DNA of 64,000 bases from a virus (Duplodnaviria > Caudoviricetes): the IMG/VR virus record IMGVR_UViG_3300039189_000053, positions 2,012 to 66,011 of that record, one strand, 5' to 3'. The translations under genes and the position numbers were made by a program. The notes below the pieces were generated by a model. That model ran no database searches and was not told the origin of the DNA. It saw only the letters and a program-made list of their open reading frames with translations. This document shows positions 12,211 through 64,000 of this stretch, piece after piece. Each line of letters opens with the position of its first letter. Within the stretch, counting starts at the first letter, position 1.

Positions 12211-15200
12211 TTACCAGAGTTTCAACAGCATGTGGATCGGGAATATGGATTCCAGACCCTCACCGTAGTTCAGCACACCCGACTCCATTGGGTTGTTGAT
12301 ATCCGGTCCTGCTTCCACAAACGTGGGCAGGCCACCGAAATACTGATCCAACAGCACCATACTGATACCCCGGCCACCGCGTTCACGGAACAACCGCCAC
12401 AGCACTTTTTGTGCGCGTAGGTAGTATTTGGTGAAGAACACCAGGCCGGTATCGTTCAGATACTGCATGGCCTTGTGCGTGGGTACGTCGTAGTTAATGA
12501 ACGTATCCGAGATCACCTGCAATGCCGTTTCATGATCCATCGGTGCATCCTGGCGATTAACCAGTTCCTGGTACAGCGTGTATCGCGCCACAAAGTCACT
12601 CATCTGAGTGGCCCGGGACAACGTTTTGTACACCGCTGTGTCGTGAGTCATAAACAGGTTTTTGGTGACCGTCTTCACCCCTTTCGGAACATTCTCCGTG
12701 CGGGCGTCCAACCGCTTACGCAGCCGGCTGGTGAAGCTGTAATCACTGTCCGTTGTGTCCACGTCTTCCAGAATCGTCTGGAACATGCCTTCATCAATCA
12801 GCATTTTAACCGGGTTGCGGTCCATGCTGTCCTGCAGTTCGGCCATGGTTTGCTTCTGCTCTGACGTGGCCAGTCCAACACGATCCAGGCGAGCCAGTGT
12901 CTGCAGCTCGTCCTGATCCTTGGAATACTTCAACAATCCCTGCACGGCTTCTTTGTGACGTTGACTGATGTTCTCCAGGCTAACGCCCTGCCACACCAGA
13001 ATGCTGACGTTGGAGCCGATGTTATTGATCAGCGTGAACACGTTCTTGATTACCCAGGCATCTTTGATCTGCCGAATAATGTCCTGCCACGCATCTTCAA
13101 ACTGACGAACCCGCATCTTTGCCTGGGCCCGGGTTGTATCAACACCAATCTGCGGCAACCAGTCCATCAGGCCTTCCATAACCCCAACAAACGCACTTTC
13201 AAACCCATTACGATAATCGCTATGTTTATCCCAGATAGACGACAGGCTGTATTTCCGATACCCGAAAATCATGTTGTACACGTCGCGGCGAACATACAGT
13301 TTGCGTCGACCGTCTGCCCCGCGTAGCTGACGCTTCACGTCTTCTGGCAGCAACCGGTAATCTTCCTGAACCACTGGGTCCGGAGACACGGCACTGACTT
13401 CTATGAAGCGTTCTGGATGATCCGTCATTTCATCCATCTCCATCTGATGCAACGCGTCTAGTACCCGCTGGTTTTGCAGCGGTGACATTTGCTTATCAAA
13501 CGTGTTGCTCAGTGTGGCGCCCAACACTTCTTCCGCGCGGTTGTCTCGGTCCAGTACCGTATCCTTGGTGGATTCTTCCATCAGGTACCGGTAGTCCGTG
13601 ATGTTACCCTGCGGATCGTAGATCGGTGCCGTAAAGCCTTCACGAACATTGGCAGGCTCAAAGTTCTTGCCTTTGGCGCTGGCACTTTGAATGTAGTGTT
13701 GCCCTGTCCGATTCATCCGTGCCTTTTCCCGGTTACGCCGGGACAGGCTCGAGACTTCACCCAGTGACGATGTGCCTTTGCTCCGCTTGCCGGTCATTGA
13801 AAAAGACCCAGTCACTCGGCTCTGCATACCGCCATAGGGCATCATCATCATCACCTGATCTTCCCGATCTGTGCGTTCCATGGGATCGCGTGGCAGCTTG
13901 TCCGACACCAATACCCAACCTTTGGCCTGATAGCGTTCCATCTCTGACCGGGCCACCACGGTCACGTCCCGGTGTGGGTTGTAAAGCTCGCGGGTGTAGC
14001 CTTTGGCCATGAACGTTTTATCGCCGCCAAACACGGTGCTCAGTGCATCCTCTTTTGACGCCTTATGGGTCAGTAAGGTGTACAGCATCCCGCTTTTTTC
14101 GTTACGCAGATTCTCCCGACGAAACACTTCGGAAGTTCTGGTCCTGTCACTCTCACCGGTGTACGACAGAGCGTACAGCGACACCAGCGGATCCAGGACT
14201 TTCTCAGCCGCGTTGGCCTCGGCCTCCGTAACAGACGCATTATCCACCCCGTACAGACGGGACAGCGTGTAAGCGTTCTTGTTCAGGTGCGCCACTTTCA
14301 CCTTGCCGGTGGTCATGTGGTAACCCAACGCTTTGGCATACGCCAGGTAGTAGTCGGTGTGGTAGCCCAGATCCTGAAGCTGGGTTTCCCAGTCTTCAAT
14401 GGCTTGCTGTAGCCGCTGTGGGTCACGCACCATCGCTTCCAGGTCTTCCTGGCTGTAATGCTCAGCCAGTGATGACAGATCCGTTCTCAGGATCACCCGG
14501 GTAATGGACTCACTCTCTTCGTCCGTCAACGCATCAAAACTTCTGCGAATGTCCCGTGACGTTCCATCTTTGATGTGTTTGCGGTCCCGTTCGTTTTTGC
14601 CGGCCATTCGCAACAGTTTAAAAAACGCCTGCGTTTTGTCAGTCGCACCCAGCACTTCAGTAACCATTGACTGAAGCAGGTTCTGGCGCTCGGACTGCGT
14701 ATTGGTCCGGTAGTTGGCAAGGCTGTTAACCAGCTCTTCCACCCGTTTCTTCGCATCTTCACTGCGAACGCCAGTCAGTTTCTCAGCCACCGCGTCCTGT
14801 CCGATCGCACTCAGATCGTCAAACCAGTCAAAAGCACTGATACGTTCTTTTGAGAGCTCCGCTTTACGCTTGGCCTGAATGTCGGCCAGTCTCTGGCTCA
14901 GCTTCAGAATTCGGGCGTTGTCCGCCTGCTGTGCGTTGGTGTTGTTCATCCGGTCGCCCAAGCGACTGGTCACAGAATCAAACCAAGAATTGAATGTCTC
15001 ACCTTCTGCCGTGGACTTTTCCAGTGCCGCGTTCACCTTTGGGTGTACCAATGCCAGAGCCGCAAAGCGACTCAAATGACGGGTCCGGTTTTCACCCGGC
15101 TCCTGGGTAATGTCAAACAGGAAGTCGTACTGTGCCTGGGCTTGATCCGGGTCATTCGACAGATCGCTTGGATCAATCGAACGCTTTGCCCGTGAGAACG

Positions 15201-18200
15201 TGCGAACCAGTGCCTTATAGGCCGTAGTGTCTGTGGCCAGTGCCGCTTCGATAGAGACTTCGGCCTGCTCCAGTACAAACAGTTCCTGATCCGTTAGGTA
15301 GAATACCCCGCCTGCCTCTGTGGCAAACGGCATCTCACCGGACACAATCGCGTCAGTGTAAACCTCGGCCGGTGTTGCCAGACCGTCGTTCGCCACCCAT
15401 GCGCCATAGGGGCCATGTACCGTAGATACGATGGTTCGCAACACTTCCCTCAGTTGTGCGTCATTGGCCGTGCCTCGATCGCTGGCCAGTGCGTCATACA
15501 CCTGTTCGCTGGTCCACTGTGCCGCGGTATTACCGACACTGTCTTGCTGTTTGGCGGTGGCCTCGGTTGTGCGGGTACGTGCCTGCTTGGCTTCGTGCAT
15601 CAAACCAGCACCGTTCACAATGACCGCCTCCAGACCAGTGTCCTTGATCTTGCCAGCGTCTTGACCAAACAGCATGCCCTTGATCGCATCCACAAACGCC
15701 ATCAGTCCCTTGACCAGGCTTTTCTTGTTCCGTGTCTTGTACCGGACTTTTGACAACAGTTCCTGGAACTCGGGATTCGACAGACCCCAAGCCAGTAACT
15801 CGTGCTCGTTATCCAGTGCGTTGGTCTGCTCCCACCGGGCTTTCAGCTCGGCGTTCTCTGGCTTGTCCAGATAGACCTGAGTAGCCCGACGCAAAGACTC
15901 CAACTCTTTGGTGAACTTCTGGGCCTTGCGGCTCCCGTTCCCGTTCTGAGCATCGTCAACAACGTGATACAGCACACTGTGCAGCACCTCGTGAGTCACC
16001 ATTTCCGGGGTCAGCCCTGACTCAACAAAGTCCGGGCTCTTCAGGTAAATCTTCTCCACACCGTTGCGGAAGTTCCAGAACCCCTGAGCTTCGCTCACGT
16101 CTTCGTCGGGCATACCGTCAGTGGGTGTGTCTTTGGTGACGTACTGAATTTCAATGTCCGGATCCACCAGTTTCTGCAATGCTTGTGTCAGCTTGGTTCG
16201 TGGCAGTTGTGCCACCAGATCCCGTACCTTCATGTTCGGGTTGTTTGCCAGCAGACTTACCAATGCACTGTCACTGGTGTGTACCGGCGTACCGACGGTT
16301 CCCCACGCAGGTTCTGTTCCAGCAGACTCATCAATGTCAGGTTCAGCGGCTTCAGCCAGGGACTGTTCACGCAACGCCTGATCGCCCAGCACTCGCTGGG
16401 ATACCGTGGTCTTTGCACGCTCAGCAATGCGCGTATAGTCGGCATCAGTCAGTGTGTATTCACCGCCTTCCACGCCGTACTGATTCACAGTCTGCAGTGC
16501 TGCCAAAAGTGCCAGCTTATTCGCCTCGGCCTGATCGGCTGCCCGCAGAGCACTCATCAGATCCCCTTTTACATTCTCAATAGAACCGTTCAGCGCGTCT
16601 TTATAGGCTTTGCGGAACTCTGGATCCTGCTCCATTTCAAACAAGCGCCCTTCAAAGTCACGCAGCACACGGTAGCCCGTCTGCATGAAGGCTTCCGGTA
16701 GCGAGTAATTGACCAGGGCTTTCAGAGTCTCCTGGTTCATTCGCTCAGCAACGGTCTGCATTTCAGGAGCGGCCACAATCGCAGCATCGTGTACGTTCAG
16801 CGCCTGGAAGTTCGTGTACGTCCTTGACGCAATCGCACTGTCCAGAGCGTGCGCCGACATAATGAACGAACGGACGCCCGGGTCGCTGTATTCATGGGCT
16901 CTGCCGAAGCCGTTCAAAGCCGTGCGCTGACCCGAGTTATTCACCCGCTCGCGGTTTTTCTTGTCGGTCCAGCTTACGTCTGTGTCGCCGGTCACCGGTA
17001 TCGGCTGAGCGAACGTGCTCCCTACTTCAAACGCTGGATTGTCTTTTTGCACTTGCGACTCTATATCCGCCATGTGCAAACCAGCGCCCAATTCACTGCT
17101 GCGCTTAGACATAGCGGTGTGCATCACCGGCGTTGCCGCGCGGATACGTGCGTTCAACTCTTCTTCCTGGCGAGCCGTCAACGTCTGCAGCGGCTCACCC
17201 TGTTTGTTGGTTTTGATGTTCAGTTCTTTCAGGAACTTGCGTTTCTCAAAATTCCGAACCAGTTGGAACATGGAATAGCTGTGGCTGGCCACCCTATTCA
17301 TCTGGTCGCGGAACTCAATGAAATCACCAAACTGTTCTTTCAACGCGGTCTTAACGTGCTTGCCCAGGGTAATTTCAAACTGAGCCACGGCATGGTTGCG
17401 CTGCTCAGAAGTCAAGGTCAGTCGCTGTGCCTGAACCAGTGACGTAGGAATAGGCGCCTTCGCGTTCTTGGGCAGCAATGGATTCAATGTCTTGACCAGA
17501 CGCTGTGCGTCCTCAAGGCGATCGCTGTCAGGCTTGCCACTGTTAAGCGCGCCTTCAAGCTGCTCAAAAAACAGATCGACCATCTCCTGGCCCATGCTGT
17601 TAATGGCTTTGCCAATACCAGACCCGAACGCCATTGCAGTCAGCGGTGTCTTGACCCGCTTACGGCCGTCACCAGATACCGGACGTGGGCCATCAACCTC
17701 TTCATCGCGCTTTTGTGGCTCATTTGTAAACGAGCCCATCAGAGCAAACACGCTGGCGTACTTGGTCTTGCCTTCTGCCATAGCACGCTGATACGCCTTT
17801 CGGGCCAACTCATCCACCCGGACAGCCAGACTTTGATACAAGTCATTGTTGGCGTCGTCTTCTTGCCAGGCGCCGGCACTCTGATGCTTGGCACCTTTAC
17901 CAAAGAAGCCCATCTTCTCGACCAGAGTCAGGCCTGAGTCCACCGACTTCCAGGCACCGGACAAGATCGTTGCCAGGGCTGGGCCGTTGGTAATGCCGTC
18001 ACCTTCACGAACCAGAGTTGAGGTGAATTCACCGGCGCCGGTCTTTTTGGCAGTCTGCCACCGTGACAAGTTCACCAGCGCATCGAACGTATGGAACTGC
18101 TCCTTACGTCCAACAAAGTCAGCCAGTGCCGAGACTTCTTCCGGCGTGACTGTCTGGCCTGTGGTCAGTCTGGTGACGGTGTCAATGTGCGGCTGAGCCT

Positions 18201-21200
18201 GCTTCACTTCCTTGTCAAAGTGCTTCAAAGAACGCTCGTTGGTCTGTTTATCCACCGGCGCACCCAGGCCTTCCAGAACCGCCAACTTGAACTGGCGGAA
18301 GTTGTGCTGGGCTTTCTTGCTGATGCCTTTGCCTGCCCCTTTAACCGGTACGGTGTAAGACCATTCCGGCATTTGCAGCATAAACCGGTGCACTTTGCTG
18401 GTCAGCGGATTCACCGTGTTCGACAACATGCCGACTCGCTGGTTAACCCAGACAGACAGCGGAAAGTAGAACGGCTTGTTGGGCTCATCCACAAACTCTT
18501 CGCGGTTGTAGAAATCCAGTAAGTGATCCACTTCCCGGTACAACGCGTCGTTCTTACCGTCCACAGACGCCTTGTTGGTTGCCTGCACAATGTAATTGGT
18601 CAGGTCTTTTGCCCCGGCCATACGCGCCAGCAACTCCCGGCTCTGACCCGGCAGCATCAACTCCAGTTGCTCAACCAGTGCTTTCATATCCTGGCGAATC
18701 GTCCACTGTTTGGTGGCCATCTCGTTTTCCAGGATCTTCTTCTGCTCAGACGGAATGTTTTCATCCCGGCCCTTGGTGGTCTTTTGCGTCATCTTTGGTG
18801 GCTCAAACACCGGCCCCGTGGTTTCGTTTTCCACGGCAAACAGTTTGTTGCCAATCGACTTGCTGCCTTTACTGGCGTCGTACAGTTCAGCGGCACTGTC
18901 GACCGGTGTGCCGTCTTCATTACGAGCCAGTCGTGTGAACCAATGGATGGGTTTGGACGTGCGGTTTTCCGCTTTGGTGGCGTTCTCTTCTTTGAAGAAC
19001 TCACTGCGAACACCTTCCCGGATCAGGATTTCCTGACGGTACAGTGCCTGCAAAGCCGCGTGACCCAGTGCCAATTCCAGTTGAGCAACCGCGTTGTTCG
19101 GTGCGTCTTTGGAGGATTTCAATCCCAACGCCTCAATGGCTTTACGACCCAGATCGTGAACAATCACCGATTCGTAGCTGCCTTTGTCATACAACGCGTC
19201 GTATTCAGGACCGGTTACCTGCTCGGCCGACGACCTGTCCACCATGCTGGCGATCTGCTTGCGCGTGTTGTACTGATTTCCCGCGGCCAGATCCTGAACA
19301 AACTGGCTTGCCGCTACCGAAATTGCAGTCTGTACGTTCTCCGGCAAGTTGCCCTCGGCATCGGCAAAGAATTGCAGGAAGTCGTACCGACGACTGGTGT
19401 CTGTTGTCCGTTTCTTGAAACCGTCCGCCACTTTGGCATTGGTCGCTTCAATGAAGCGTGTCAGAGCTTTCAGGTAACGAACCTGTTGCGAGTCTTCCGC
19501 CTGATCCAGGTCTTTTACAAACGGCTCCAGGCCGGTCCCGTTGTTGGCCACAGCAGGCTGTAAGATTTCACTCAGGAAGTTTTCCCGCGTGGTCAACGGA
19601 TGCTTGGATCGGCCATCGTCGATGAGTTTACGGACAATGAAGTACGCTTCTATCAGGTTGGTCGAATCCAGCAAGTCCGGAGCCAGTTGCCCTTTCACCG
19701 GGGTAAATGTCAAACCATAGGCGGTGGCACTCTCATTGCCTGCATCGTTTTCACTGCGTCCTGGTGCAGTCTCTGATTCAGGCTGTCCAGAGTCTCGCCC
19801 ATCTCCAACAGGCTCTGCCACGTCTCTGGTGGTATCGGTAGGTGTTTGATCTCCGTCTGCCCCAACTTCAGCATCTTCGGTGGGTTTAGCGTCAGTTCTT
19901 GATTCATCTGCTGCTGGCGCCTCTGGTTCTGCTTGCGCTGTAGTTTCCGATTGTTCAGTTTCTTCTGGGCGTTGGTCAGCTTGCGTCTGGGCATCGGTGG
20001 TTCCCTGTGTAGTTGCAGTGTCTGGACGTTGGGCCACTTCAATAGCAGCACTCAATTCTTTACCGGTCGCAATGATTGCCTGAGCTTCCTGGGCAATGCG
20101 TTGAGCCAGCTTCTTGGAACCCGGCGCCTGTGAGAACTGCAGGCCGCCATTGGCACGCAGCAACGCATCGTCTGCCTTACCACGGCCTGGACGCTTCACC
20201 CACCCATCGGCGCTGCTCGGATCGGACCACAGGGCCATCTGCTGACCCGGGCGTGATTCAGCCTGAGCTTCTTTTGCCAGTCGGGCCTTGGCTTTGTGAC
20301 GTTTGGCAAAGGAACGTAGCTCGTTCAGGTACTCATTGGCTGAGTCGGTATCGCCGGCTTCCAGAGCCGCGTTTACCAGAGAACGGTATTCTGGCAGTGA
20401 ACGGAACCCGTCTTTGCCTTTCTCACTGAGTAGGTCATTGGTAGTGCCGTCTGTGCCTGTGAGCTTGCCTCTGGCTTTAGCAGCTTTGGACAAGGTCTTG
20501 AGATAGGTCTGTTCCTGGGAATCCAGCAAAGAGCCTGTGGACTCGTTCAGCGCGGTTACTGATTCATCCGGCAAGCTGCTGGTGTCTTTCATCAACAGAG
20601 TGACCGCACGTTTACCCGCACTTTTGCGAACGTCAGAGCCCTGATTGGCGTCTGTGGCCGTTTGCAGAAGTTTATCCACATCAACGTCCGTTTCTTCCTG
20701 AGACTTCAGAACACTGCGACGTTTGCGGATTACATCAAGAGCGCCCTGAAGCTCGGCACTCTTTTCCCGAACCCTGGCTTTCATATCCGGCGCGTTATCA
20801 AACGCACCCCGGACCTTGGCTTTCAATGCAGCCTGCTCTTCTTTCAAACGCTGGAGCCCGTCCTGGTCACCGGTCTGTCTTGCAGCCTTTGCCAATGACT
20901 TCAAGCGTTTCATCTGGCTTTTGACCGCTTCTTTGCCACGGGCCGTTGCCCCGGCAAACTGCGCTTCAGTCGCATCCAGTTGCTTGTTCAGCTTGGTTTC
21001 CAGTCGAGCCAGTGATTTCTTGCTCGCCTTACGGATCTTCTTGGGTAACTTCTTGTTGACCGCTGTTTTGTGCAGAGCAAAAGCAACCCGTTCGATCGGG
21101 AACGATTCGGTGTCTTCCAGAGTCTCGTAATCACCGTCAATGATTGCCTCGGCAATCTTGGTATCAACCTGGCGTGCTTCTTCGTTACGCACTTCCTGAC

Positions 21201-22347
21201 GTTCACTGGCTGCTTTAAGTTGCTCGCCTGGCTCTTTAATAGCGGCGCTACCCAGACCCAGAGAACCACCAAAACCAGCACCCAGTACCGCATCGGTAAA
21301 GGTATGGGCCGTCAGACTTTGATCATCACCAATGGCTGCGTTAGAAGCCGCTCGAGCAGCAACGCCTTCTGCGACTTCCTGTGTGCCTTCTTCTGCGGCG
21401 GATACTGCCGTTGTTCCGGCAATCCGACCTGCGGCCGTCTTGCCTATTTTCTTTCTCAAGGGTCCCAGAATTTTTGCCGTAGCGGCACCACCGATTGCAC
21501 CAATCGGCGCAGAACCCATAAAGGCTGCTTGACCCGACTCATCGCTGACAGCGTCCCGGGCCTCGGCCTCACTCATATCCTTCTTGTCTTGCAGCTCCAT
21601 GAACATATCCAGAGCCTGGAGCTCTTCATCGGACATATTCTGAATACGTTCTTCCGCATCCCGTGCCTGACTACCACCGGCTTGAAGACCACCAATAGTG
21701 GCCATGGCTGTGGCTACTGCTTTTGGACTGCGCATCATAAACGCAGCCGCCTGTGGTGCGAACGAACCAGCAAGACTGGCCGCCTGACCCAGGTAACCTT
21801 CTACCGATGGATCATCGCCAAAGCTCCAGCTTAAAGGGTCTGTCAGATCACCGGTCGGCGTGCTTCCTTGCACGGCCTTTTTAAACTCCGGATCCTGCAT
21901 TTGGTTAATTTGATCGCCGCCTTCATACATCCAATCTTCAAGACTTTGAAGCCATTCACTGGGGTCAGTAATACCCGCACTGTTCAATGCTTCATTGGCC
22001 GATTGGATCTCGTCATCAAGACCCAGTTTGCCCAGGCCTTTTTCGACAAGTTGCCCTCCAATGTTGACGATGTCTCCAATACCGCCCATGACAGCGCCGG
22101 TACTGTTCACCCCTACTTCCGTGAATTTCCGGGCGTAGTCCGAGTTTATTCCAAAACCAGACAGCGAACCGCCTGGTTGTTGGCGAGCTTTTAACGCAGC
22201 CCGTTTTTCATCGGCAGCCACTGCCACTTTGGATTGCTTGGTAGCCAGAGCGTCGTTCAGACGATCCCACTGAGACACACCATCATTGGCTGCCCCTACG
22301 GGGGCAGCCTTGTCGGCAAAGTATTGATTGGCGTCGAATTGACTCAT
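12211..22347 (-). CDS. Virion-encapsidated RNA polymerase (N4 gp50-like)
   Basis: 3378 aa; motif A REGDGITNGP, motif B RKRVKTPLTAMAFG and motif C LNVHDA; HEVLH zincin-like motif; no Cys found on reading; C-terminal FINYD...GLVFFTKYYLR. Confidence 0.97.
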   Translation of the reverse strand: MSQFDANQYFADKAAPVGAANDGVSQWDRLNDALATKQSKVAVAADEKRAALKARQQPGGSLSGFGINSDYARKFTEVGVNSTGAVMGGIGDIVNIGGQLVEKGLGKLGLDDEIQSANEALNSAGITDPSEWLQSLEDWMYEGGDQINQMQDPEFKKAVQGSTPTGDLTDPLSWSFGDDPSVEGYLGQAASLAGSFAPQAAAFMMRSPKAVATAMATIGGLQAGGSQARDAEERIQNMSDEELQALDMFMELQDKKDMSEAEARDAVSDESGQAAFMGSAPIGAIGGAATAKILGPLRKKIGKTAAGRIAGTTAVSAAEEGTQEVAEGVAARAASNAAIGDDQSLTAHTFTDAVLGAGFGGSLGLGSAAIKEPGEQLKAASERQEVRNEEARQVDTKIAEAIIDGDYETLEDTESFPIERVAFALHKTAVNKKLPKKIRKASKKSLARLETKLNKQLDATEAQFAGATARGKEAVKSQMKRLKSLAKAARQTGDQDGLQRLKEEQAALKAKVRGAFDNAPDMKARVREKSAELQGALDVIRKRRSVLKSQEETDVDVDKLLQTATDANQGSDVRKSAGKRAVTLLMKDTSSLPDESVTALNESTGSLLDSQEQTYLKTLSKAAKARGKLTGTDGTTNDLLSEKGKDGFRSLPEYRSLVNAALEAGDTDSANEYLNELRSFAKRHKAKARLAKEAQAESRPGQQMALWSDPSSADGWVKRPGRGKADDALLRANGGLQFSQAPGSKKLAQRIAQEAQAIIATGKELSAAIEVAQRPDTATTQGTTDAQTQADQRPEETEQSETTAQAEPEAPAADESRTDAKPTEDAEVGADGDQTPTDTTRDVAEPVGDGRDSGQPESETAPGRSENDAGNESATAYGLTFTPVKGQLAPDLLDSTNLIEAYFIVRKLIDDGRSKHPLTTRENFLSEILQPAVANNGTGLEPFVKDLDQAEDSQQVRYLKALTRFIEATNAKVADGFKKRTTDTSRRYDFLQFFADAEGNLPENVQTAISVAASQFVQDLAAGNQYNTRKQIASMVDRSSAEQVTGPEYDALYDKGSYESVIVHDLGRKAIEALGLKSSKDAPNNAVAQLELALGHAALQALYRQEILIREGVRSEFFKEENATKAENRTSKPIHWFTRLARNEDGTPVDSAAELYDASKGSKSIGNKLFAVENETTGPVFEPPKMTQKTTKGRDENIPSEQKKILENEMATKQWTIRQDMKALVEQLELMLPGQSRELLARMAGAKDLTNYIVQATNKASVDGKNDALYREVDHLLDFYNREEFVDEPNKPFYFPLSVWVNQRVGMLSNTVNPLTSKVHRFMLQMPEWSYTVPVKGAGKGISKKAQHNFRQFKLAVLEGLGAPVDKQTNERSLKHFDKEVKQAQPHIDTVTRLTTGQTVTPEEVSALADFVGRKEQFHTFDALVNLSRWQTAKKTGAGEFTSTLVREGDGITNGPALATILSGAWKSVDSGLTLVEKMGFFGKGAKHQSAGAWQEDDANNDLYQSLAVRVDELARKAYQRAMAEGKTKYASVFALMGSFTNEPQKRDEEVDGPRPVSGDGRKRVKTPLTAMAFGSGIGKAINSMGQEMVDLFFEQLEGALNSGKPDSDRLEDAQRLVKTLNPLLPKNAKAPIPTSLVQAQRLTLTSEQRNHAVAQFEITLGKHVKTALKEQFGDFIEFRDQMNRVASHSYSMFQLVRNFEKRKFLKELNIKTNKQGEPLQTLTARQEEELNARIRAATPVMHTAMSKRSSELGAGLHMADIESQVQKDNPAFEVGSTFAQPIPVTGDTDVSWTDKKNRERVNNSGQRTALNGFGRAHEYSDPGVRSFIMSAHALDSAIASRTYTNFQALNVHDAAIVAAPEMQTVAERMNQETLKALVNYSLPEAFMQTGYRVLRDFEGRLFEMEQDPEFRKAYKDALNGSIENVKGDLMSALRAADQAEANKLALLAALQTVNQYGVEGGEYTLTDADYTRIAERAKTTVSQRVLGDQALREQSLAEAAEPDIDESAGTEPAWGTVGTPVHTSDSALVSLLANNPNMKVRDLVAQLPRTKLTQALQKLVDPDIEIQYVTKDTPTDGMPDEDVSEAQGFWNFRNGVEKIYLKSPDFVESGLTPEMVTHEVLHSVLYHVVDDAQNGNGSRKAQKFTKELESLRRATQVYLDKPENAELKARWEQTNALDNEHELLAWGLSNPEFQELLSKVRYKTRNKKSLVKGLMAFVDAIKGMLFGQDAGKIKDTGLEAVIVNGAGLMHEAKQARTRTTEATAKQQDSVGNTAAQWTSEQVYDALASDRGTANDAQLREVLRTIVSTVHGPYGAWVANDGLATPAEVYTDAIVSGEMPFATEAGGVFYLTDQELFVLEQAEVSIEAALATDTTAYKALVRTFSRAKRSIDPSDLSNDPDQAQAQYDFLFDITQEPGENRTRHLSRFAALALVHPKVNAALEKSTAEGETFNSWFDSVTSRLGDRMNNTNAQQADNARILKLSQRLADIQAKRKAELSKERISAFDWFDDLSAIGQDAVAEKLTGVRSEDAKKRVEELVNSLANYRTNTQSERQNLLQSMVTEVLGATDKTQAFFKLLRMAGKNERDRKHIKDGTSRDIRRSFDALTDEESESITRVILRTDLSSLAEHYSQEDLEAMVRDPQRLQQAIEDWETQLQDLGYHTDYYLAYAKALGYHMTTGKVKVAHLNKNAYTLSRLYGVDNASVTEAEANAAEKVLDPLVSLYALSYTGESDRTRTSEVFRRENLRNEKSGMLYTLLTHKASKEDALSTVFGGDKTFMAKGYTRELYNPHRDVTVVARSEMERYQAKGWVLVSDKLPRDPMERTDREDQVMMMMPYGGMQSRVTGSFSMTGKRSKGTSSLGEVSSLSRRNREKARMNRTGQHYIQSASAKGKNFEPANVREGFTAPIYDPQGNITDYRYLMEESTKDTVLDRDNRAEEVLGATLSNTFDKQMSPLQNQRVLDALHQMEMDEMTDHPERFIEVSAVSPDPVVQEDYRLLPEDVKRQLRGADGRRKLYVRRDVYNMIFGYRKYSLSSIWDKHSDYRNGFESAFVGVMEGLMDWLPQIGVDTTRAQAKMRVRQFEDAWQDIIRQIKDAWVIKNVFTLINNIGSNVSILVWQGVSLENISQRHKEAVQGLLKYSKDQDELQTLARLDRVGLATSEQKQTMAELQDSMDRNPVKMLIDEGMFQTILEDVDTTDSDYSFTSRLRKRLDARTENVPKGVKTVTKNLFMTHDTAVYKTLSRATQMSDFVARYTLYQELVNRQDAPMDHETALQVISDTFINYDVPTHKAMQYLNDTGLVFFTKYYLRAQKVLWRLFRERGGRGISMVLLDQYFGGLPTFVEAGPDINNPMESGVLNYGEGLESIFPIHMLLKLW

Positions 22348-39743: not shown

Positions 39744-39759
39744 ACAGCTCTGCTGTTAC
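39744..39759 (+). promoter_or_regulatory. vRNAP-type hairpin promoter (class A)
   Basis: ACAGC-TCT-GCTGT upstream of the gp2-like gene. Confidence 0.65.
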
Positions 39760-53069: not shown

Positions 53070-53586
53070 AAACCGTTACTTGATTGGGGAAGATGGAAGT
53101 ATTTTAAATCTGGCCAACAATACCAGACTAACTCCCTCAGAAAATCCAAATGGGTATTTAAAAGTCTCGCTGGCTAATGGTGACGGAACGTCTACACAAC
53201 AAAGTATTCATCGCCTTGTCGCTTTGCACTACGTACCTAACCCTTACGGTTATACTCAAGTTAACCATAAAAACGGTAATAAAAAACACAACCAAGACAC
53301 AAATCTTGAATGGTGTGACCCGTCATACAACATAAACCACGCCTTTAAAACAGGGGTACGTAAGGGGTATATGTCTGCCGATGATAAAGAACATCACTTA
53401 CACCAAGTTCTAAATGGTGCTCAAGTTAATGACATCGCCGTACAAATCAGTAGACGGCCTGAAACACTACATAAGATGTTAAGGGAGACATCAAAAAGAT
53501 TAGGTATACACGATCAATGGCAGGCCGTAATGAAGGAGAACCGTAAAAATGCAGCCATTCGGAACCTTACAAAAGTCAACTCTTGA
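53047..53586 (+). mobile_element. HNH homing endonuclease inserted into the DNA polymerase gene
   Basis: NGYLKVSL...IHRLVA..YVPNP....VNHKNGNKKHN...NLEWC...NINHA; AT-rich insert that overlaps both polymerase halves. Confidence 0.92.
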
Positions 53587-54418
53587 AATACCTGACGGAG
53601 CTGATTTCAGTATTAAACACGTAGGAAGTACCGGAGGTTACGATGGTCACAGTCTGCGTGCGTTCACCTATTGGCCTGAAAAATTCCCCTGGGACGAGCT
53701 CACACCTGAGCGAAGCCATGAGGTGAAGAAGGATAAAGGCGATTTGGGCAAAGCCCGTAGCGATTCTAAAGGACCGACGTTTGCACTGACCTATCAGGGC
53801 ACCTGGCACACGTTGGTTAAAAACCTGGGCTTCGCTAAAGCAGACGCACTGCGGATTGAAGAAAACTACCACGAGCTCTACAAAGTCTCAGACGAGTGGG
53901 TGCGCCAACAGTTAGAAGAAGCTTCTCGTGTTGGTCACGTTAGCATTGCGTTTGGTCTGCGGTTGAGAACACCGCTATTGGCCAAAACGTACCGCAACAA
54001 GTCCAGCACACCGTATGAAGCTGAAGCCGAGGGTCGTACCGCTGGTAACGCACTGGGCCAGTCCTATGGCTTGCTAACCAACCGCTCTATAAACGAGTTC
54101 ATGCAGAAAGTCTGGCAATCACGGTTCCGCTACGACATTAAACCAGTGGCCATGATCCACGACGCCAATTACCTGCTCATCAAAGACGACATTGAAGTAG
54201 TCGAGTGGGTAAACCGGGAGCTGATCAAATCCATGGAATGGCAAGATCTGCCGGAGCTGCATCACCCCACGGTGAAGCTGGGCGCTGCATTGGACATTTT
54301 CTATCCATCTTGGGCCGAGGAATGTACTCTGCCCAACTACGCTGACCAGGAGGAAATCCGTGCTACTTGCGCGGACTTTCAAGCTGAGCTGGCCGAGAAG
54401 CAAAAGGACGCTGCATGA
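53549..54418 (+). CDS. Family A DNA polymerase, C-terminal part (motifs B and C)
   Basis: GYDGHSLRA, RSDSKGPTFALTYQG, NALGQS and MIHDA; own RBS AAGGAG at 53533-53538. Confidence 0.92.
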   Translation: MQPFGTLQKSTLEIPDGADFSIKHVGSTGGYDGHSLRAFTYWPEKFPWDELTPERSHEVKKDKGDLGKARSDSKGPTFALTYQGTWHTLVKNLGFAKADALRIEENYHELYKVSDEWVRQQLEEASRVGHVSIAFGLRLRTPLLAKTYRNKSSTPYEAEAEGRTAGNALGQSYGLLTNRSINEFMQKVWQSRFRYDIKPVAMIHDANYLLIKDDIEVVEWVNRELIKSMEWQDLPELHHPTVKLGAALDIFYPSWAEECTLPNYADQEEIRATCADFQAELAEKQKDAA

Positions 54419-56434: not shown

Positions 56435-56668
56435 ATGGTTTTTGATACCACCGTGGCCGGTATCCCATGCCAATGCCTGGTCACCAGCTATCATCCGGCT
56501 GTGCCCATGCGAATCACTGGCAGCGGCTTTGGCGATGCCGAGCCACCAGAAGCGGAAGAATTTGAATTCCGCATTATGGATCGCAAAGGTTATCCAGCGC
56601 CCTGGCTGGAAAGGAAACTCGACAAGGAAGACAACGAACGTTTATTAAGAGAGTTTCACGCGTTATGA
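56435..56668 (+). CDS. Conserved phage hypothetical protein
   Basis: AGGAGG RBS; VAGIPC...DRKGYPAPWLERK. Confidence 0.8.
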   Translation: MVFDTTVAGIPCQCLVTSYHPAVPMRITGSGFGDAEPPEAEEFEFRIMDRKGYPAPWLERKLDKEDNERLLREFHAL

Positions 56669-56874
56669 CATTGCTCGAAATGTTGACCCAAATAAGGACA
56701 ATAATTCGTTCTGCTTGTTTCACAGATATTGTTGAACAAACCGGCGTATCAGAATCAACGGTTTCACAGTGGCGTAATGAGCCTCCTGCATTACCCTCAC
56801 TCAGTGTATTTTGTAAGTTGGCACGTTATTGTGGTTTAAACCCATCCATTAAACAGTTGGAGCAGTTATTTTGA
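56665..56874 (+). CDS. XRE/Cro-type HTH regulator
   Basis: IVEQTGVSESTVSQWRN...PSLSVFCKLARYCG. Confidence 0.75.
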   Translation: MTLLEMLTQIRTIIRSACFTDIVEQTGVSESTVSQWRNEPPALPSLSVFCKLARYCGLNPSIKQLEQLF

Positions 56875-59684: not shown

Positions 59685-60116
59685 ATGCCTAAGTCACGCG
59701 CTATCAGGGCAGATACAATCAACCGTCACCTGAAGGCCTACAAAGACTTGAGAGAGCAGCTCAGTGTTGACCCAAAAATCAACAACAAGGCTTTTACCCA
59801 AAAGCATCGGGTGTCTGCAGGCTTTATTGGAGAGCTTTGCCGTGAGGAGTATTTATCCCACATCGGCGTTTCCGCTTACTCACCCACCAACAAGATACTC
59901 ACCGCTGACGGTCTGAGGGACTTGTTGCGAAAGCGGGAAGGTAAACGCCATCTCGATCCGAACCGGACGTCAAATGACCCGGGGCCGTCTGAAGATCCGA
60001 AAGCGATCGCTGAACAGATTCGCCCCAGTGCCTTTGTACCCTTGGCTGATTACGAGGCTTTGGAGCGCCGTGTATCCGCACTGGAACAACTGATCATTCG
60101 TAAAGGAGTGGCATGA
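59685..60116 (+). CDS. Hypothetical protein
   Basis: Coupled ORF with a C-terminal coiled coil. Confidence 0.65.
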   Translation: MPKSRAIRADTINRHLKAYKDLREQLSVDPKINNKAFTQKHRVSAGFIGELCREEYLSHIGVSAYSPTNKILTADGLRDLLRKREGKRHLDPNRTSNDPGPSEDPKAIAEQIRPSAFVPLADYEALERRVSALEQLIIRKGVA

Positions 60117-60204
60117 CACTGGGTCTGGACGCCGATCCCATTCGCATCAAGTAACCAATAAACGGTAGCCGGGGGAAAACCTCGACTTCCATCAGGAGAA
60201 TGCT

Positions 60205-60597
60205 ATGACTGTTTCATCCGACGAGTTCGATAACGATTTCCGGGGACCACTGTACGAGCTTCGTGACAAGCTCTATGACGACATTCCTTCTGATCAGCAG
60301 GTAGAGGACTTCCGGACCGGTCTGAATAATCTCATTGGCCTGGCAGACGATTACCGTGTTGAGCTTCTGGATCAAGAAGACAAGGCCGAGAAATATTTCA
60401 ACGCCCGCCCCGCGCCCGCTGATCAGGGCGACACATGCACATGGGAGCTGGACCACGGCGATTCCGCTTGGGCGGGAAAGTGCGGTATCTACTGGTCTTT
60501 TATTGATGATGGGCCACAGGAAAACGGGGTTAAGTTTTGCCCAAAATGCGGCAAGTCGTGCGTTTTTGTTGAGACGAACCAGGAGCAAGATCAATGA
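60205..60597 (+). CDS. Hypothetical protein with C-terminal Zn ribbon
   Basis: AGGAG RBS; CTW...W...CG...FCPKCGK. Confidence 0.75.
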   Translation: MTVSSDEFDNDFRGPLYELRDKLYDDIPSDQQVEDFRTGLNNLIGLADDYRVELLDQEDKAEKYFNARPAPADQGDTCTWELDHGDSAWAGKCGIYWSFIDDGPQENGVKFCPKCGKSCVFVETNQEQDQ

Positions 60598-61058
60598 ATA
60601 AACTTTACGCAGAACGCGACATTATTGAGCAAGGCGACTACTACTCTCGTCATACGTCAGCCATGACAGGTGAAGACCTTCACAGTAAATCAGACATTGC
60701 TGCTGAACTGGCTCACCGGGATATTGAAATTGATAAGCTAAAGGCGAGAGTGGCTGCACAGCAGTCGGCTCTTAACTCAATATGCACGTGCTCATGGGGG
60801 GCGGCGGAGTTTTTTGACGTAGGGAAGGCCGCAAGTTGGATGCAGAAAATTGCTTATGATGCACTTGACGAAGTTCCGTCAACCGAAGCCTTCATTCTGC
60901 GGAAGCAGGGAGCTGCAGTAGAATCTGAAATTGTAAATTTGTGTAGTGAGCTTAGAAAATCAGGATATAGCGGTATCAGTGTAAAAGAACTTTTGCACGA
61001 ATCCATAAGCAGATCTTCAAGAATTATAAACGAAGCTAAAAAGTTTGATGACCAATGA
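60594..61058 (+). CDS. Hypothetical protein of the temperate-phage accessory type
   Basis: YAERDI...YY.RH.SAMT.E.LHSKSDIAAELAHRD. Confidence 0.75.
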   Translation: MNKLYAERDIIEQGDYYSRHTSAMTGEDLHSKSDIAAELAHRDIEIDKLKARVAAQQSALNSICTCSWGAAEFFDVGKAASWMQKIAYDALDEVPSTEAFILRKQGAAVESEIVNLCSELRKSGYSGISVKELLHESISRSSRIINEAKKFDDQ

Positions 61059-61180
61059 GCAAACGAGCTTGGTATCGCTGCAACGAACGTAAAGCCAAAT
61101 CCTTAATAGAGCAGGGAATAAAAGTACGGCTTGAAAATGGGGTTTGGTATTACAAACGAAGAGTAGTTCAACGAAATTGA
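61055..61180 (+). CDS. Small basic protein (41 aa)
   Basis: ATGA-coupled; MSKRAWYRCNERKAKSLIEQGIKVRLENGVWYYKRRVVQRN. Confidence 0.55.
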   Translation: MSKRAWYRCNERKAKSLIEQGIKVRLENGVWYYKRRVVQRN

Positions 61181-61220
61181 TACAAGGCAACTCATTTGGC
61201 CTTAACAAGTGAGCACTGAT

Positions 61221-61334
61221 TAGGATTCTGAGTTGTGCGTGAGGGTTAATCGCCAACGAGAGTCGGCATAGGCTGATTACCTAGCTGAACCACAACAGGT
61301 ACATTAGCAGGGTTCAATTCCCGCCAGAGTCCTA
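61221..61334 (+). ncRNA. tRNA-like structured RNA (acceptor-like stem plus T-arm, no CCA)
   Basis: TAGGATTCTG/CAGAGTCCTA stem abutting GCAGGG-TTCAATT-CCCGC. Confidence 0.55.
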
Positions 61335-61337
61335 TTC

Positions 61338-61482
61338 AGTGTGGTGAGGGTGCTATTAAGCACATATTGATACCTCGTATCAGAGGGTTAAATTTCGCAA
61401 ACACACTCAACTGATGTTTTAAAGGTGCAACCTTTCGGGCGATGTCACCATAAACACTGGCTGGAATGCTAGTCACCACACT
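61338..61482 (+). ncRNA. Multibranch structured RNA candidate
   Basis: Perfect 10-bp closing stem AGTGTGGTGA/TCACCACACT enclosing 5-6 hairpins. Confidence 0.55.
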
Positions 61483-61506
61483 CCTAATTTTATAAAGGAA
61501 CAAACC

Positions 61507-62064
61507 ATGAGTTATGTATTCCCAAGCGATCAAGACCGTGCTGACGACGATCAGCTTAATGAAGCATGTGAACGTATTGAAGAGTTAATGGATCAACTGG
61601 TCAGCCGCCAGGGGGTTGAGGGTGAGCCGGTGGCGGTAGTTGATCGAGTCGGAATCATGCAGCGGCTTTCCCCATACACCAATCTGCCAGAAGGCACAAA
61701 GCTTTACACCCACCCTGCCAGCCGCCAGGCGCTTGAGGGTAAGCCGTTTACGTGGGTTTTCACGGATGTTAACGGTGAGGCCAAGGAAATTGCAGGCGAC
61801 CCAGTACATAGAAGCCCGCAAGACTTGAGGATATACACGGCGCTCTACACCCACCCTGCAAGCGCCGATAAGCAGGCTGTGAGTGTGCCGGATGGCCGAT
61901 CAAATGAGTGGCTGAAAACCCTTGACCGCTGGATTGACTTGATGGATCGCTTGGAGGGGGAGCCAATAAACACTTCAGTGCAGCGAGAAATTTATCGAGT
62001 TAAAACAGAGGTAATGCGTTACCGCAAACATAAAGTAGCGCCAAAGCAGGAGCAAGACCAATGA
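61507..62064 (+). CDS. Modular hypothetical protein with internal repeats
   Basis: AAGGA RBS; two copies each of SRQxxEGxP and LYTHPAS. Confidence 0.7.
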   Translation: MSYVFPSDQDRADDDQLNEACERIEELMDQLVSRQGVEGEPVAVVDRVGIMQRLSPYTNLPEGTKLYTHPASRQALEGKPFTWVFTDVNGEAKEIAGDPVHRSPQDLRIYTALYTHPASADKQAVSVPDGRSNEWLKTLDRWIDLMDRLEGEPINTSVQREIYRVKTEVMRYRKHKVAPKQEQDQ

Positions 62065-62291
62065 ATAAAGACGTTATTAACCCTGCCTATGTGCAGATCA
62101 GCAAAAAACAAGCTGCGTCTATTCTCGGCTTCAGCGAACGGGAACTAGATAACCGCCGCAAGAATGACAAACGCTGTCCCAAAGGCTTCAAGGAATACGA
62201 CACTCGCTCATCGCCGGTGCGTTTCCGTCTGTCCGACATTTACACGTACAGTGAAGCCATTATGAACGACGCCATGGAAGCGACAGGCTAG
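62061..62291 (+). CDS. xis: Excisionase / AlpA-like recombination directionality factor
   Basis: ISKKQAASILGFSERELDNRRK...PKG...VRFRLSDI winged HTH; convergent with the integrase. Confidence 0.8.
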   Translation: MNKDVINPAYVQISKKQAASILGFSERELDNRRKNDKRCPKGFKEYDTRSSPVRFRLSDIYTYSEAIMNDAMEATG

Positions 62292-63478
62292 GATTTCTCC
62301 AGCTTGTCCAGGTAGTCCGCATACCATTGCATCATCTTTTTCCGCTGCTCCAGGTAGACAGCCTTGTTGTATACCCCGGCCACACCCTGCACTTTATGCG
62401 CCAACTGAGCCTCGATCACATGGTGGTCCCAGCCATGTTCGTGCAGCAACGTAGAGGCCGTGTGCCGGCAACCATGGCCCACCAGCTTGTCTCTGTATCC
62501 CACAGACTGCAGGGCCTTATTGATGGCCACTTCGCTGATCACAGCGTTCTGCCCGCTGCCGGGGAAAACATACTGGTTCAAGCCAGTACGCTCATGGAGC
62601 TTGCGGAGTTCTTCAACCGTTTGCTGAGCCAGAGGAACAACATGGGCTACCCGTGTTTTCATCTTTGGCGCCGGTATCGTCCACACTCCATTGTCCAAAT
62701 CCATCTCCGACCATTCGGCCCTACGGGCCGAGCCTGGCCGGGATGCCGTTCTTAACACCAACCGAACCAGTGTCAGAGTGATGATGGTTCCTCTTGAACG
62801 CCGCAGGGCCTTCAGGAAAGCCGGTAGCTCGTCTTCCAATAGATGAGGGTACTGTTTTTCTTTAATGCCTTCCTGAGCGATCTGACGCAGTTCACTGGCT
62901 GGATTCAATTCCAACAGGCCTTGGCCAATGGCCAGTGAGAATATCTGTGTCAGCCATCGCCGTATCTTGGCCGCAATTACATACGAGCCACGCGCCTCAA
63001 GGTTCGCCTGGATCTTGGCACAGTCGGCCCGGGTGATCTGTTTCAGTCCCAGGTCACCAAGCACTGGGTAAATGTCTTTTTCCAAGTAGCCTTTGTACTG
63101 CTTCAGGCTCCCGTGTGACCGGCCGGCCACAACTTTGCGCCGATACCAGTCATCCCCTACGGTGCGGAACAACACATCGTCACTGGCGGGGTTGTTTGCC
63201 GGTTTGGCTATGTCTACCCCATTGGACAAGTCTTTCAGTATCTGGTGTGCCTTCTCTCGCGCTATTTTGCCGGATACTGACGGGAAGCCACCCAGGCCTT
63301 TCCAGGCCCAAGAACCGTTGGGTCGTTTGTATCGCAGCATCCATGACTTGGTGCCGTTGGGCTTCACGCGGAAATACAGGTTAGGGCTGTCTTTCTCCTG
63401 ATACTCCTTAGCGTCAGGCTCAAGGTTCGTCAGAACGCTGTCTGCGAGCGGCCTGCGCTTGATTTGAGATCGTTTCAT
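62288..63478 (-). CDS. int: Tyrosine recombinase integrase (P4-like, with arm-binding domain)
   Basis: N-terminal LYFRVKPNGTKSW; catalytic R (TASRP), K (MKTR), HGCRH, H (QLAH) and Y (GVYN). Confidence 0.96.
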   Translation of the reverse strand: MKRSQIKRRPLADSVLTNLEPDAKEYQEKDSPNLYFRVKPNGTKSWMLRYKRPNGSWAWKGLGGFPSVSGKIAREKAHQILKDLSNGVDIAKPANNPASDDVLFRTVGDDWYRRKVVAGRSHGSLKQYKGYLEKDIYPVLGDLGLKQITRADCAKIQANLEARGSYVIAAKIRRWLTQIFSLAIGQGLLELNPASELRQIAQEGIKEKQYPHLLEDELPAFLKALRRSRGTIITLTLVRLVLRTASRPGSARRAEWSEMDLDNGVWTIPAPKMKTRVAHVVPLAQQTVEELRKLHERTGLNQYVFPGSGQNAVISEVAINKALQSVGYRDKLVGHGCRHTASTLLHEHGWDHHVIEAQLAHKVQGVAGVYNKAVYLEQRKKMMQWYADYLDKLEKS

Positions 63479-63722
63479 GTCTACCTCCCGTGTCTACCGC
63501 GCCAATGATACAAGCAGGTAGACAAGGAATGCACGTATAACCTTTCCAATGATTGCGGAAGACTGCTAAAGAAATTCTCAGAAACTCAGTGTTTATGCGG
63601 CTCTGTGGGAAAGATTGCGGAAGATTACAAATCGAAATGGTGCCCGGGGCCGGATCTAAACTCCCTGTAACCGTGCGGTCTGTAGCGGGTATCACGCCCA
63701 GGTAGACAAGCAGGTATACAAG
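63478..63722. other. attP-like site: tRNA-Leu 3'-end core (63638-63654) with arm-type repeats on both sides
   Basis: Minus strand TCCGGCCCCGGGCACCA; GGTAGACA repeats at 63478 and 63491 (inverted), 63515 and 63699, plus a variant at 63711. Confidence 0.8.
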
Positions 63723-63754: not shown

Positions 63755-63782
63755 AAAAAAGCCCACTCAGTGGTGGGCTTTT
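63755..63782. terminator. Bidirectional terminator
   Basis: AAAAAAGCCCAC-TCAGTG-GTGGGCTTTT. Confidence 0.8.
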
Positions 63783-63809: not shown

Positions 63810-63998
63810 TCAACCAGGGCCGGAAGGATCACTTCCAGCTATCACCATCTCTGTTGCTGCATCGACACCGTCCTCAATAGGAACGCCCCGGTTCAACAGT
63901 ATCTGCGTTTGACGGTCAATCATAGCCATATCCTCGGCATTGGCAATCGCTTTGATATTCTCCCATGTCTTCGCACAACACCAGAGTTTCAGTGTGGT
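63810..63998 (-). CDS. 3' end of a late-strand gene (partial)
   Basis: Only minus-strand frame open from the edge; stops just before the terminator. Confidence 0.4.
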   Translation of the reverse strand, partial: TTLKLWCCAKTWENIKAIANAEDMAMIDRQTQILLNRGVPIEDGVDAATEMVIAGSDPSGPG

Positions 63999-64000
63999 AC

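Follow-up and report, generated by a model that had tools for sequence, protein, structure and literature searches.

The 64,000-nt window analysed here (bases 2012-66011 of the 66,011-bp IMG/VR record IMGVR_UViG_3300039189_000053, so that the window end is the record end) comes from an N4-like phage and carries, close to that end, an integrase gene (int), a gene for a small winged-helix protein (xis) and a phage attachment site (attP) whose core is identical to the 3' end of tRNA-Leu genes. We consider it probable that these parts constitute a functional site-specific integration module of the P4 type, with xis encoding its directionality factor, resident in a LUZ7-like N4-like phage of a Marinobacter-like host. 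An earlier note, made from the DNA letters alone, had proposed a complete int/xis/attP module aimed at tRNA-Leu in a temperate N4-like phage. The parts of the module, their conservation and co-variation among relatives, the identity with tRNA-Leu, the attP state of the site and the record of a related provirus opened at attP are directly visible. In N4 the first transcripts are made by an RNA polymerase that is injected with the DNA, and the family is treated as lytic.

The integration module and its attachment site

The components of the module, in order along the window, are as follows.

62061..62291, plus strand: 76-aa winged-helix protein, putative excisionase or recombination directionality factor (xis), from the open reading frame (ORF) call
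62288..63478, minus strand: P4-type tyrosine integrase (int), 396 aa, apparently intact, from Pfam
63478-63485 and 63491-63498, minus strand: int-proximal inverted arm sites GGTAGACA, two copies, from the repeat search
63515-63526, minus strand: int-proximal direct arm site CAGGTAGACAAG, with a degenerate neighbour beside it, from the repeat search
63551-63562 and 63613-63624, minus strand: second 12-nt motif GATTGCGGAAGA, two direct copies in the P arm, an exact repeat
63638..63654, minus strand: attP core, 17 nt, TCCGGCCCCGGGCACCA, identical to tRNA-Leu genes over their 3'-terminal stretch, which spans the final base of the T-loop to CCA
63699..63722, minus strand: distal arm with two tandem direct sites, CAGGTAGACAAG and CAGGTATACAAG, from the repeat search

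The integrase had been called intact in the earlier note, and all three domains and the catalytic residues were found. The N-terminal arm-type DNA-binding domain of the DUF4102 type (PF13356, Arm-DNA-bind_3; 7.7e-14) is followed by a central SAM-like domain (PF22022, Phage_int_M; 1.6e-14) and the catalytic domain (PF00589, Phage_integrase; 1.6e-23). Residues R247, K274, H335, R338, H361 and Y370 are invariant in an alignment of 20 sequences and align with the P4 Int residues; over 394 aa the two integrases share 31% identity (E 3e-55). The best phage matches are to Pseudomonas phages (52.8%), and the named relatives at 53-61% identity belong mostly to Marinobacter, Halomonadaceae and Halovibrio. 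Copies 98% identical were present on two short contigs, and homologues of 58-70% identity on contigs of 67-74 kb. The protein would be expected to recombine attP with attB, for which the related attL of L249 and the provirus record G1079, both described below, lend indirect support.

The 17-nt core is present on the minus strand as the earlier note described, although about 2 nt from the place that had been implied; recounting puts it at 63638-63654, its end 159 nt upstream of the int ATG. ARAGORN called no tRNA anywhere in the 64-kb window, and the match of the core to tRNA therefore truly stops at the T-loop, in agreement with the original description. The core was then compared with bacterial tRNA-Leu genes, a check that had been recommended. 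Scanning one genome per bacterial species gave at least 120 matching stretches, from which 80 loci with 82 exact matches were examined. In 57 of these 82 the core forms the 3' end of a tRNA-Leu called by ARAGORN (43 taa, 13 caa, 1 gag), while one match ends a tRNA-Phe and one a tRNA called SeC. The other 23 matches carry no tRNA call, and 18 of them have a GGTTC T-arm directly upstream when the flanks are read by eye. The tRNA-Leu(gag) of the Marinobacter genome G006 ends in the window core, with an identity of exactly 17 nt. At three further core loci (L122 1298-1314, L098 6852-6868 and L118 4248-4264) the upstream sequence is unlike tRNA, and in L122 the sequence before the core, GTTTAGAT, is close to the GTTTAGA of the window. 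These three loci are possibly attR remnants or att sites of other elements.

Arm-type repeats on both sides of the core had been reported, and this was borne out with five sites in place of the three first counted. The pattern CAGGTA(G/T)ACAAG occurs three times in the 64-kb window, at 63515, 63699 and 63711, all within 63515-63722; with up to one mismatch allowed 0.47 copies are expected, and three were reached in 1 of 100 shuffles. When sites are counted as 8-mers there are five in a 434-nt region, and none of 2000 shuffles gave as many. The GGTAGACA copy at 63478-63485 overlaps the int start and covers the A of the ATG, and the distal sites lie at -84 and -72 from the core 3' end. The GATTGCGGAAGA repeat at 63551 and 63613 is exact, as had been stated. 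A third copy with one mismatch lies at 53082 (0.46 expected; three reached in 0 of 100 shuffles), and on the int strand the pair stands at -146 and -84 from the int ATG. A different exact 12-mer is found at -146 and -72 in L003, the attP locus of a relative. For both the window and L003, none of 500 shuffles gave a match as good as the one observed. The 12-mer pair was not significant in three other relatives (L004, L005, L054). We infer that the pair may serve as candidate binding sites for the excisionase or another accessory protein. A scan with the consensus of integration host factor (IHF) gave no site in the window attP.

The xis gene starts in overlap with the stop of the ORF upstream, ends in convergent overlap with the stop of int, and is the last gene of the plus-strand block of middle genes. 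Its product matched no Pfam family at E<=10 apart from a chance match, and its profile gave no meaningful match to sequences in the PDB (uL29, E 0.058). The NCBIfam models found in its family of 24 members all scored far below their cut-offs: Xis_Gifsy_1 in two members (best E 0.088) and antitoxin-type helix-turn-helix (HTH) models in 14 (best E 1.3e-4). All of its 26 homologues are metagenomic, some of them on contigs of 67-74 kb. The AlphaFold2 (AF2) model, with a predicted local distance difference test (pLDDT) score of 88.6, has the order strand-helix-helix-strand-strand-helix of MerR-type winged-helix proteins. Foldseek placed the RdfS excisionase (8dgl) first (E 0.018, template modelling (TM) score 0.49-0.55), with no match at E<=0.001, and the nearest structure cluster in the ESM Atlas was Phage_AlpA (TM 0.84). 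The winged-helix fold is common to many regulators and is therefore no proof of excisionase function. The strongest argument comes from gene linkage, which supports a role in excision or directionality: of the eight chromosomal loci in the G006 family, five have a homologue placed convergently behind int, and so do four of the five N4-like relatives. The convergent small ORF of the earlier note was thus found, and its naming as an excisionase draws on fold and linkage, with no match to a curated family.

Genome context and the att layout of N4-like relatives

Three features outside the module bear on the identity of the record and of its flank.

12211..22347, minus strand: virion RNA polymerase (vRNAP), 3378 aa, phrog_2206
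63757..63782, no strand assigned: hairpin with a perfect 10-bp stem, flanked on each side by A and T runs, from the inverted-repeat search
63810..64000, minus strand: gene for a small membrane protein, cut off by the record end so that its 3' part is present, phage DNA by the continuation in contig L192

By its gene content the record is a genuine N4-like (LUZ7-like) phage of the Schitoviridae type. The identification made earlier was upheld by the full-length vRNAP, both RNAPII subunits, and the capsid and portal genes of N4 type. The vRNAP ORF matches phrog_2206 with 1629.8 bits and covers profile positions 236-3398 of 3406, and the solved N4 vRNAP chains match it at E 6e-45. The two RNAPII subunits and the capsid, portal and replication genes of N4 type were identified with PHROGs (phrog_2166, phrog_2051, phrog_1357 and phrog_1216, with others, among the matches). 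The N4-type major head protein, portal, large terminase, primase, single-stranded DNA-binding protein (SSB) and other replication genes stand in N4 order, the gene order of the record being permuted relative to N4 and syntenic with LUZ7. Late genes occupy 12-37.5 kb on the minus strand and the early region about 37.5-40.2 kb, while middle genes fill 40-62 kb and resume at 0.3-12 kb. The record is classed as linear with a CheckV completeness of 89%. No end repeat was found in this 89%-complete, permuted record, and the relative G003 has a 127-bp end overlap. From 88 ORFs called by script in the window, Pfam covered 47 and PHROGs 49. With 24 kb of the window as query, Megablast returned only a 109-nt match from 50,697 phage records, which implies that no isolate is close at the DNA level; by capsid protein, lytic LUZ7-like Pseudomonas phages are among the closest isolates (67.5%).

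The module lies where the plus-strand middle and replication genes converge on a minus-strand lysis and tail-fibre block. No operon is interrupted at this junction, and the GC content there is ordinary. The hairpin at 63757-63782 probably terminates transcription in both directions, which would end the lysis and tail-fibre block and shield attP and int; among leader RNA models, the terminator portion was all that it matched. The junction of core and P arm is present on three metagenome contigs that are 98.2-98.6% identical to the window and run through the distal arm past the record end. The contig L192 (98.6% identical) continues beyond the record with an 80-aa ORF and then a 133-aa holin-like ORF, whose product is 73% identical to that of the gene adjoining attP in G003. 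At the opposite end, a minus-strand tail-fibre gene occupies the first 2.2 kb of the record, just outside the window; its product has homologues in G003, G001 and LUZ7 (gp059, 40%). The record is broken inside the lysis and tail-fibre block, with roughly 7 kb missing. Since the flanks continue into phage genes in three independent assemblies, the sequence beside the module is neither host DNA nor a chimera.

Searches of IMG/VR with single proteins, Int and the RNA ligase, gave no matches, and an alignment-based scan with Int gave 53 loci. In four of the first five records tested (G001-G004) the gene for the N4-type major capsid protein (MCP) is 72-82% identical to that of the window. Their int genes are 58-65% identical and in all four adjoin homologues of the genes that flank the module in the window. 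A xis homologue is present in G001, G003 and G004, and G003 is 100% complete with the module internal.

The layout of attP is conserved together with its position. The distance from core to int ATG is 159-166 nt in the window and in four relatives (L003, L004, L005 and L054), and the arm sites of all five follow one plan: a tandem direct pair at -84 and -72 from the core end, a single or double direct site at +113 to +128, and a single or double inverted site at +139 to +154 that reaches the int ribosome site. The distal pairs at -84/-72 are exact in L004 and L054, and the printed sequence of L003 and L005 has variant TGTACA/TGTATG pairs. The motif itself changes from phage to phage: the window has TGTCTACC, L003-L005 have TGTATACC or TGTACAC, and L054 has TGTATCCC. 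Counted as 8-mers and compared with 2000 shuffles each, as for the five sites of the window, seven sites were found in L054 (number reached in 0), five in L004 (1), three in L005 (7, moderate) and two in L003 (90, weak with the exact motif). The cores differ as well: L003, L004 and L005 have GCCCGCCGCTACCA in common (14 nt), and L003 shows a 27-nt identity with the end of tRNA-Leu(caa) of G006. The core of L054 has a tRNA-like end, which we take to resemble tRNA-Leu(gag). The 14-nt core was also sought across gammaproteobacteria, where 32 of 401 genomes matched and one of 30 loci examined was a tRNA; the other matches look like chance because a reversed-pattern control matched at a similar rate, and this search was set aside. 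Fixed positions with co-varying motifs, integrases and targets are the pattern that would be expected of a working attP. A module kept in place while its arms co-vary and its cores are re-targeted argues for selection on integration itself.

The region just upstream of xis differs among these phages. Four plus-strand ORFs at 59685-62064 (143, 130, 154 and 185 aa) are without homologues in G001-G004 or in LUZ7 1-45 kb, and the provirus record G1079, described below, gave one weak match (29% identity to 59685-60116); this stretch is a variable cargo region beside the integration module. Before the last ORFs ahead of xis lies a plus-strand spacer of 330 nt (61170-61500) that folds more stably than its shuffles (z -3.0, 0 of 100 as stable) and contains a tRNA-like T-arm, GGGTTCAATTCCC, with a possible acceptor pairing of 61222-61228 with 61329-61335. 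ARAGORN with introns and relaxed thresholds called no tRNA in the spacer, and Rfam matched nothing there. Over the whole window Rfam gave nothing at the gathering threshold, and the weak matches at 61-64 kb were terminator look-alikes only.

Two differences in the backbone genes were also observed. The DNA polymerase (51069-54418, plus strand) is split into ORFs of 666 aa and 289 aa with an HNH endonuclease gene (52999-53586) between them. It is one ORF of 885-886 aa in G001 and G003 and is split in G002 too, which looks like insertion of a mobile endonuclease or an intron. The large terminase has 537 aa in the window (34401-36014) versus 871-1214 aa in three relatives (G003:C1:23886-27530, G002:C1:17261-19876 and G004:C1:32300-34957), and the longer ORFs suggest inteins or other insertions.

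Integration in the lineage and rival explanations

The closest relative found, G1079, came from a scan with the xis alignment. This record of 73,086 bp is 99% complete, is classed as a provirus in IMG/VR, has an MCP 83% identical to that of the window and is syntenic with it throughout. It starts at the stop codon of the holin-like gene and ends at the start codon of int, the genes that flank attP, so that the whole genome is opened at attP as expected of a prophage trimmed at its outermost genes. The exact G1079 Int is present on 10 contigs, the longest of 405,366 bp with the source name uncultured Marinobacter sp.

Relatives of the integrase also occur in chromosomes. Among 263 genomes of the G006 family, eight hold Int homologues at E<=1e-100. 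In the best three, int follows a co-oriented tRNA-Leu at a distance of 164-172 nt; a tRNA-Gly(ccc) adjoins two others, and the remaining three loci are without a tRNA. In L249, a locus on a contig of more than 1.7 Mb, the spacer between tRNA and int is 78% identical (130/166) to the P arm of G003, compared with 59-67% for other pairs, and by sequence this junction is an attL made from a G003-type attP. The host of the window phage is probably a Marinobacter-like gammaproteobacterium. The capsid query gave nothing in five genomes carrying the core.

Elements of another kind carry related integrases. Four temperate-looking records of 57-64 kb (G1072-G1075, the records of L018, L023, L052 and L010), together with G203:C27 and G020:C137, have giant ORFs of 2249-3737 aa that match the vRNAP profile only over positions of about 180-530 (E 1e-11 to 1e-16). 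These ORFs resemble the giant virion protein of F116-type phages as presented in the text of PMC5217972.

The position of the module within 2 kb of the end of a record that is linear and 89% complete, next to four ORFs without the homologues sought, would fit int, xis and attP being foreign to the phage, either through mis-assembly at a contig end or as a captured P4-like satellite or island. We regard this as very improbable. The sequences on either side of attP are joined identically in three other assemblies, the place of int is shared by five N4-like relatives, of which one is 100% complete and carries the module in its interior, and the flanks are syntenic with the lytic isolate LUZ7. Moreover, int, xis and attP are the only parts shared, no satellite genes are present, and the site is an attP rather than the attL/attR pair that an inserted island leaves. 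On the contigs, the relatives and the LUZ7 synteny, the chimeric assembly or separate satellite that the earlier note had raised against its own proposal is essentially rejected. The same note had raised host DNA beyond 63.7 kb, and the placement of int beside a tRNA-like 3' end, oriented as in integrated P4-type elements, could indeed suggest the attL or attR of an integrated prophage. This is hardly tenable, with no tRNA body upstream of the core, arm sites on both sides of it, and conserved holin-like and tail-fibre genes on the distal flank that rule out host DNA there. The site is attP, as first proposed: both flanks are phage DNA syntenic with the relatives and LUZ7, and the three contigs agree.

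A more serious contender, which we nevertheless judge unlikely, is that the module is real and the phage does not form stable lysogens, being effectively lytic or pseudolysogenic. The module would then be a passenger that integrates rarely, abortively or transiently, or would serve another task such as multimer resolution. Several results weigh against a working module in a temperate phage, and some of them favour this alternative. No CI-type repressor (HTH with S24) or immunity region was recognised among the 47 and 49 of 88 ORFs that Pfam and PHROGs covered; such a negative does not prove the lack of a repressor. No integrated copy of the window phage was found, all three metagenome junction matches being in the attP form, with none in IMG/VR. 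N4-like prophages were likewise not found in the 263 G006-family genomes, where the vRNAP profile gave only two weak N-terminal matches to ORFs of 2100 aa. The N4-type capsid gene was not found with the window query in five genomes with a related cassette, which indicates that the cassette is shared with other mobile elements; the same cassette in elements that are not N4-like thus moves horizontally. The provirus status of G1079 rests on its IMG/VR label, its record ends and the size of the 405-kb contig. A crude sigma-70 scan, in which the number of sites was no higher than in shuffles, gave no promoter between core and int. The 76-aa protein falls below every curated family threshold, its profile has no similarity to P4 Vis (hhalign probability 0.1), and its homologue was not found in G002. 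VIA-align comparisons of its model with the MerR-type winged-helix protein CarH (Z 7.1, root-mean-square deviation (rmsd) 2.3, 64 aligned), RdfS (Z 6.5, rmsd 4.0, 61 aligned) and Pukovnik Xis (Z 5.8, rmsd 2.6, 54 aligned) all have Z below 8, a range where a common fold alone can explain the scores. Carrier and pseudolysogenic states have also been reported for N4-like phages, and such states appear in the text of a 2023 survey (PMC10654107). Against a module that does not support lysogeny stand its retention at one place down to 72% MCP and 58% Int identity, with arms that co-vary and cores that are re-targeted, and the structure of G1079, which is that of a complete integrated prophage. Collectively, the window phage is probably temperate, judging from its genome and those of its relatives. 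That part of the earlier note has indirect support from the provirus-type relative and the cassettes at chromosomal tRNA-Leu genes, and an integrated copy of the phage itself was not found. The integrated relatives that it had called for were found as the attL-type junction of L249 and as G1079 opened at attP, and N4 capsid genes beside the chromosomal cassettes were not.

In a functional module of this kind, the genome would circularise after injection, the N-terminal domain of Int would bind the five arm-type sites and its catalytic domains the core, and strand exchange would take place within the 17-nt identity with the tRNA-Leu 3' end, the phage copy of the 17 nt restoring the tRNA. Once integrated, int would lie about 160 nt downstream of the tRNA, and read-through could express it. 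The 76-aa protein would be made from the same transcripts as the middle genes of the lytic cycle and would shift the balance in favour of excision. Through the arm site that covers its start codon, int could be autoregulated, as has been described for P4.

The arrangement closely parallels that of P4. Both integrases have the same domain architecture, both int genes are read away from an attP directly upstream, and both cores are tRNA-Leu 3' ends alike in sequence (20 nt in P4, at leuX, versus 17 nt here). The annotated P4 attP agrees with that of the window in every element of its layout, with an inverted arm repeat over the int start, two tandem repeats 16-40 nt upstream of the int start, a core about 150 nt upstream of int, and two tandem 12-nt repeats 54-77 nt beyond the core. 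The carriers differ, P4 being an 11.6-kb satellite and the window phage a virus of the 74-kb class. The arm motif of the window phage also differs from that of P4, its xis is convergent to int whereas P4 Vis is encoded elsewhere in the genome, and it is without the immunity and helper-exploitation genes of P4.

The lytic phage LUZ7 (Luzseptimavirus, Schitoviridae) shares the backbone of the window phage, with a minus-strand lysis and tail-fibre block (gp052-gp059) set within the replication region between two plus-strand blocks, and has no int, xis or attP at the convergent gp051/gp052 junction. Among the F116-like phages, which are temperate podoviruses, phiC725A has a P4-type integrase 36% identical to that of the window. 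The text of PMC5217972 describes a 17-bp attP upstream of its int that matches a tRNA locus, maintenance both integrated and as an episome, and a genome map on which lysogeny-control genes are marked. The giant virion protein of the F116-like phages is described there as having a domain like the terminal domain of N4 gp50 and a methylase-like centre where gp50 has its polymerase domain (PMC5217972). The F116-like phages are not N4-like in their capsid or transcription genes, unlike the window phage.

Early transcription, lysogeny control and significance

Two features bear on how infection and lysogeny might be governed.

38261-38273, 38491-38503, 39076-39088 and 39745-39757, plus strand: four hairpin motifs C(A/G)GC-T(C/T)T-GC(T/C)G-TT with a 3-nt loop
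56665..56874, plus strand: Cro/CI-type HTH protein, 69 aa (Pfam HTH_5 6e-6, HTH_3 3e-5)

The hairpin motif matches four times where 0.01 matches would be expected in the window. Every copy is on the plus strand within the early region, and the stem co-varies between CAGC/GCTG and CGGC/GCCG. The exact motif was not found in the relatives. The promoters of N4 vRNAP are hairpins of such a kind, and by analogy the four hairpins are likely candidates for vRNAP early promoters. Hairpins of the vRNAP type suggest that this phage, too, probably relies on the injected enzyme when it begins an infection. The enzyme would be missing from a prophage, as the earlier note had argued, and how the prophage would start its programme is a well-posed question.

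The 69-aa protein is the only HTH regulator detected among the 47 ORFs covered by Pfam; as a factor in lysogeny control it is a weak candidate. G001, G002, G003 and G1079 encode it, and it was not found in G004, in LUZ7 1-45 kb or in the 50,697 phage records. Its gene overlaps that of a 77-aa YuA_Gp49-family protein just upstream (56435-56874, plus strand, for the pair). The YuA_Gp49-family protein is found in lytic LUZ7-like isolates too, and the pair is a candidate regulatory or toxin-antitoxin pair.

A 2023 survey by Zheng et al. in mSystems reported 54 N4-like uncultivated virus genomes (UViGs) and proviruses with lysogeny genes, 14 of them marine, took integrases in N4-like IMG/VR genomes as evidence of lysogeny, and described 40 integrated N4-like proviral regions, mostly in Moraxella (PMC10654107). 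Integrase-bearing N4-like viruses have therefore already been reported at the survey level. Its main text makes no mention of attP, attachment sites, excisionase, Marinobacter, induction or a repressor (PMC10654107), and we found no publication whose title or abstract describes this N4-like integration module. What is added here is the anatomy of the att site, its tRNA-Leu target and P4-type layout, the place of insertion in the LUZ7-like backbone, and the likely host. In our own search the vRNAP profile matched 15 of 401 Moraxellaceae genomes, several of the matches inside contigs of Mb size; the loci include G460:C1:2018898-2027147, G429:C1:121751-132949, G463:C3:1111950-1122515 and G355:C1:1991599-1999023. 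No P4-type integrase was adjacent to vRNAP in the five Moraxellaceae genomes checked, suggesting that their N4-like prophages probably use another recombinase. In G355 a recombinase frame of 305 aa follows just after vRNAP.

The module described here turns a survey-level finding of integrases into a concrete system that can be tested, with a defined attP, an attB at the tRNA-Leu 3' end and a likely host genus, Marinobacter, that can be cultivated. Lysogeny in N4-like phages and the vRNAP problem at induction are thereby made approachable by experiment. The module also matters for practice, since N4-like phages are favoured for therapy and biocontrol on the assumption that they do not form lysogens.

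Beyond this, we tentatively suggest, at somewhat less than even confidence, that this clade would be the first in which true lysogeny is shown to go together with a lytic programme that a virion-borne polymerase sets off, with a prophage that would be off by default and two new points of control. The early hairpin promoters of such a prophage would be without their polymerase, and this would explain the lack of a detected CI-type repressor. Control would then be exerted at infection, where the programme of the injected vRNAP would have to be stopped to let Int act, and at induction, where a route dependent on the host RNA polymerase would have to make vRNAP or RNAPII de novo. Candidate players in this control would be the 69-aa HTH protein and read-through from the tRNA-Leu promoter into int.

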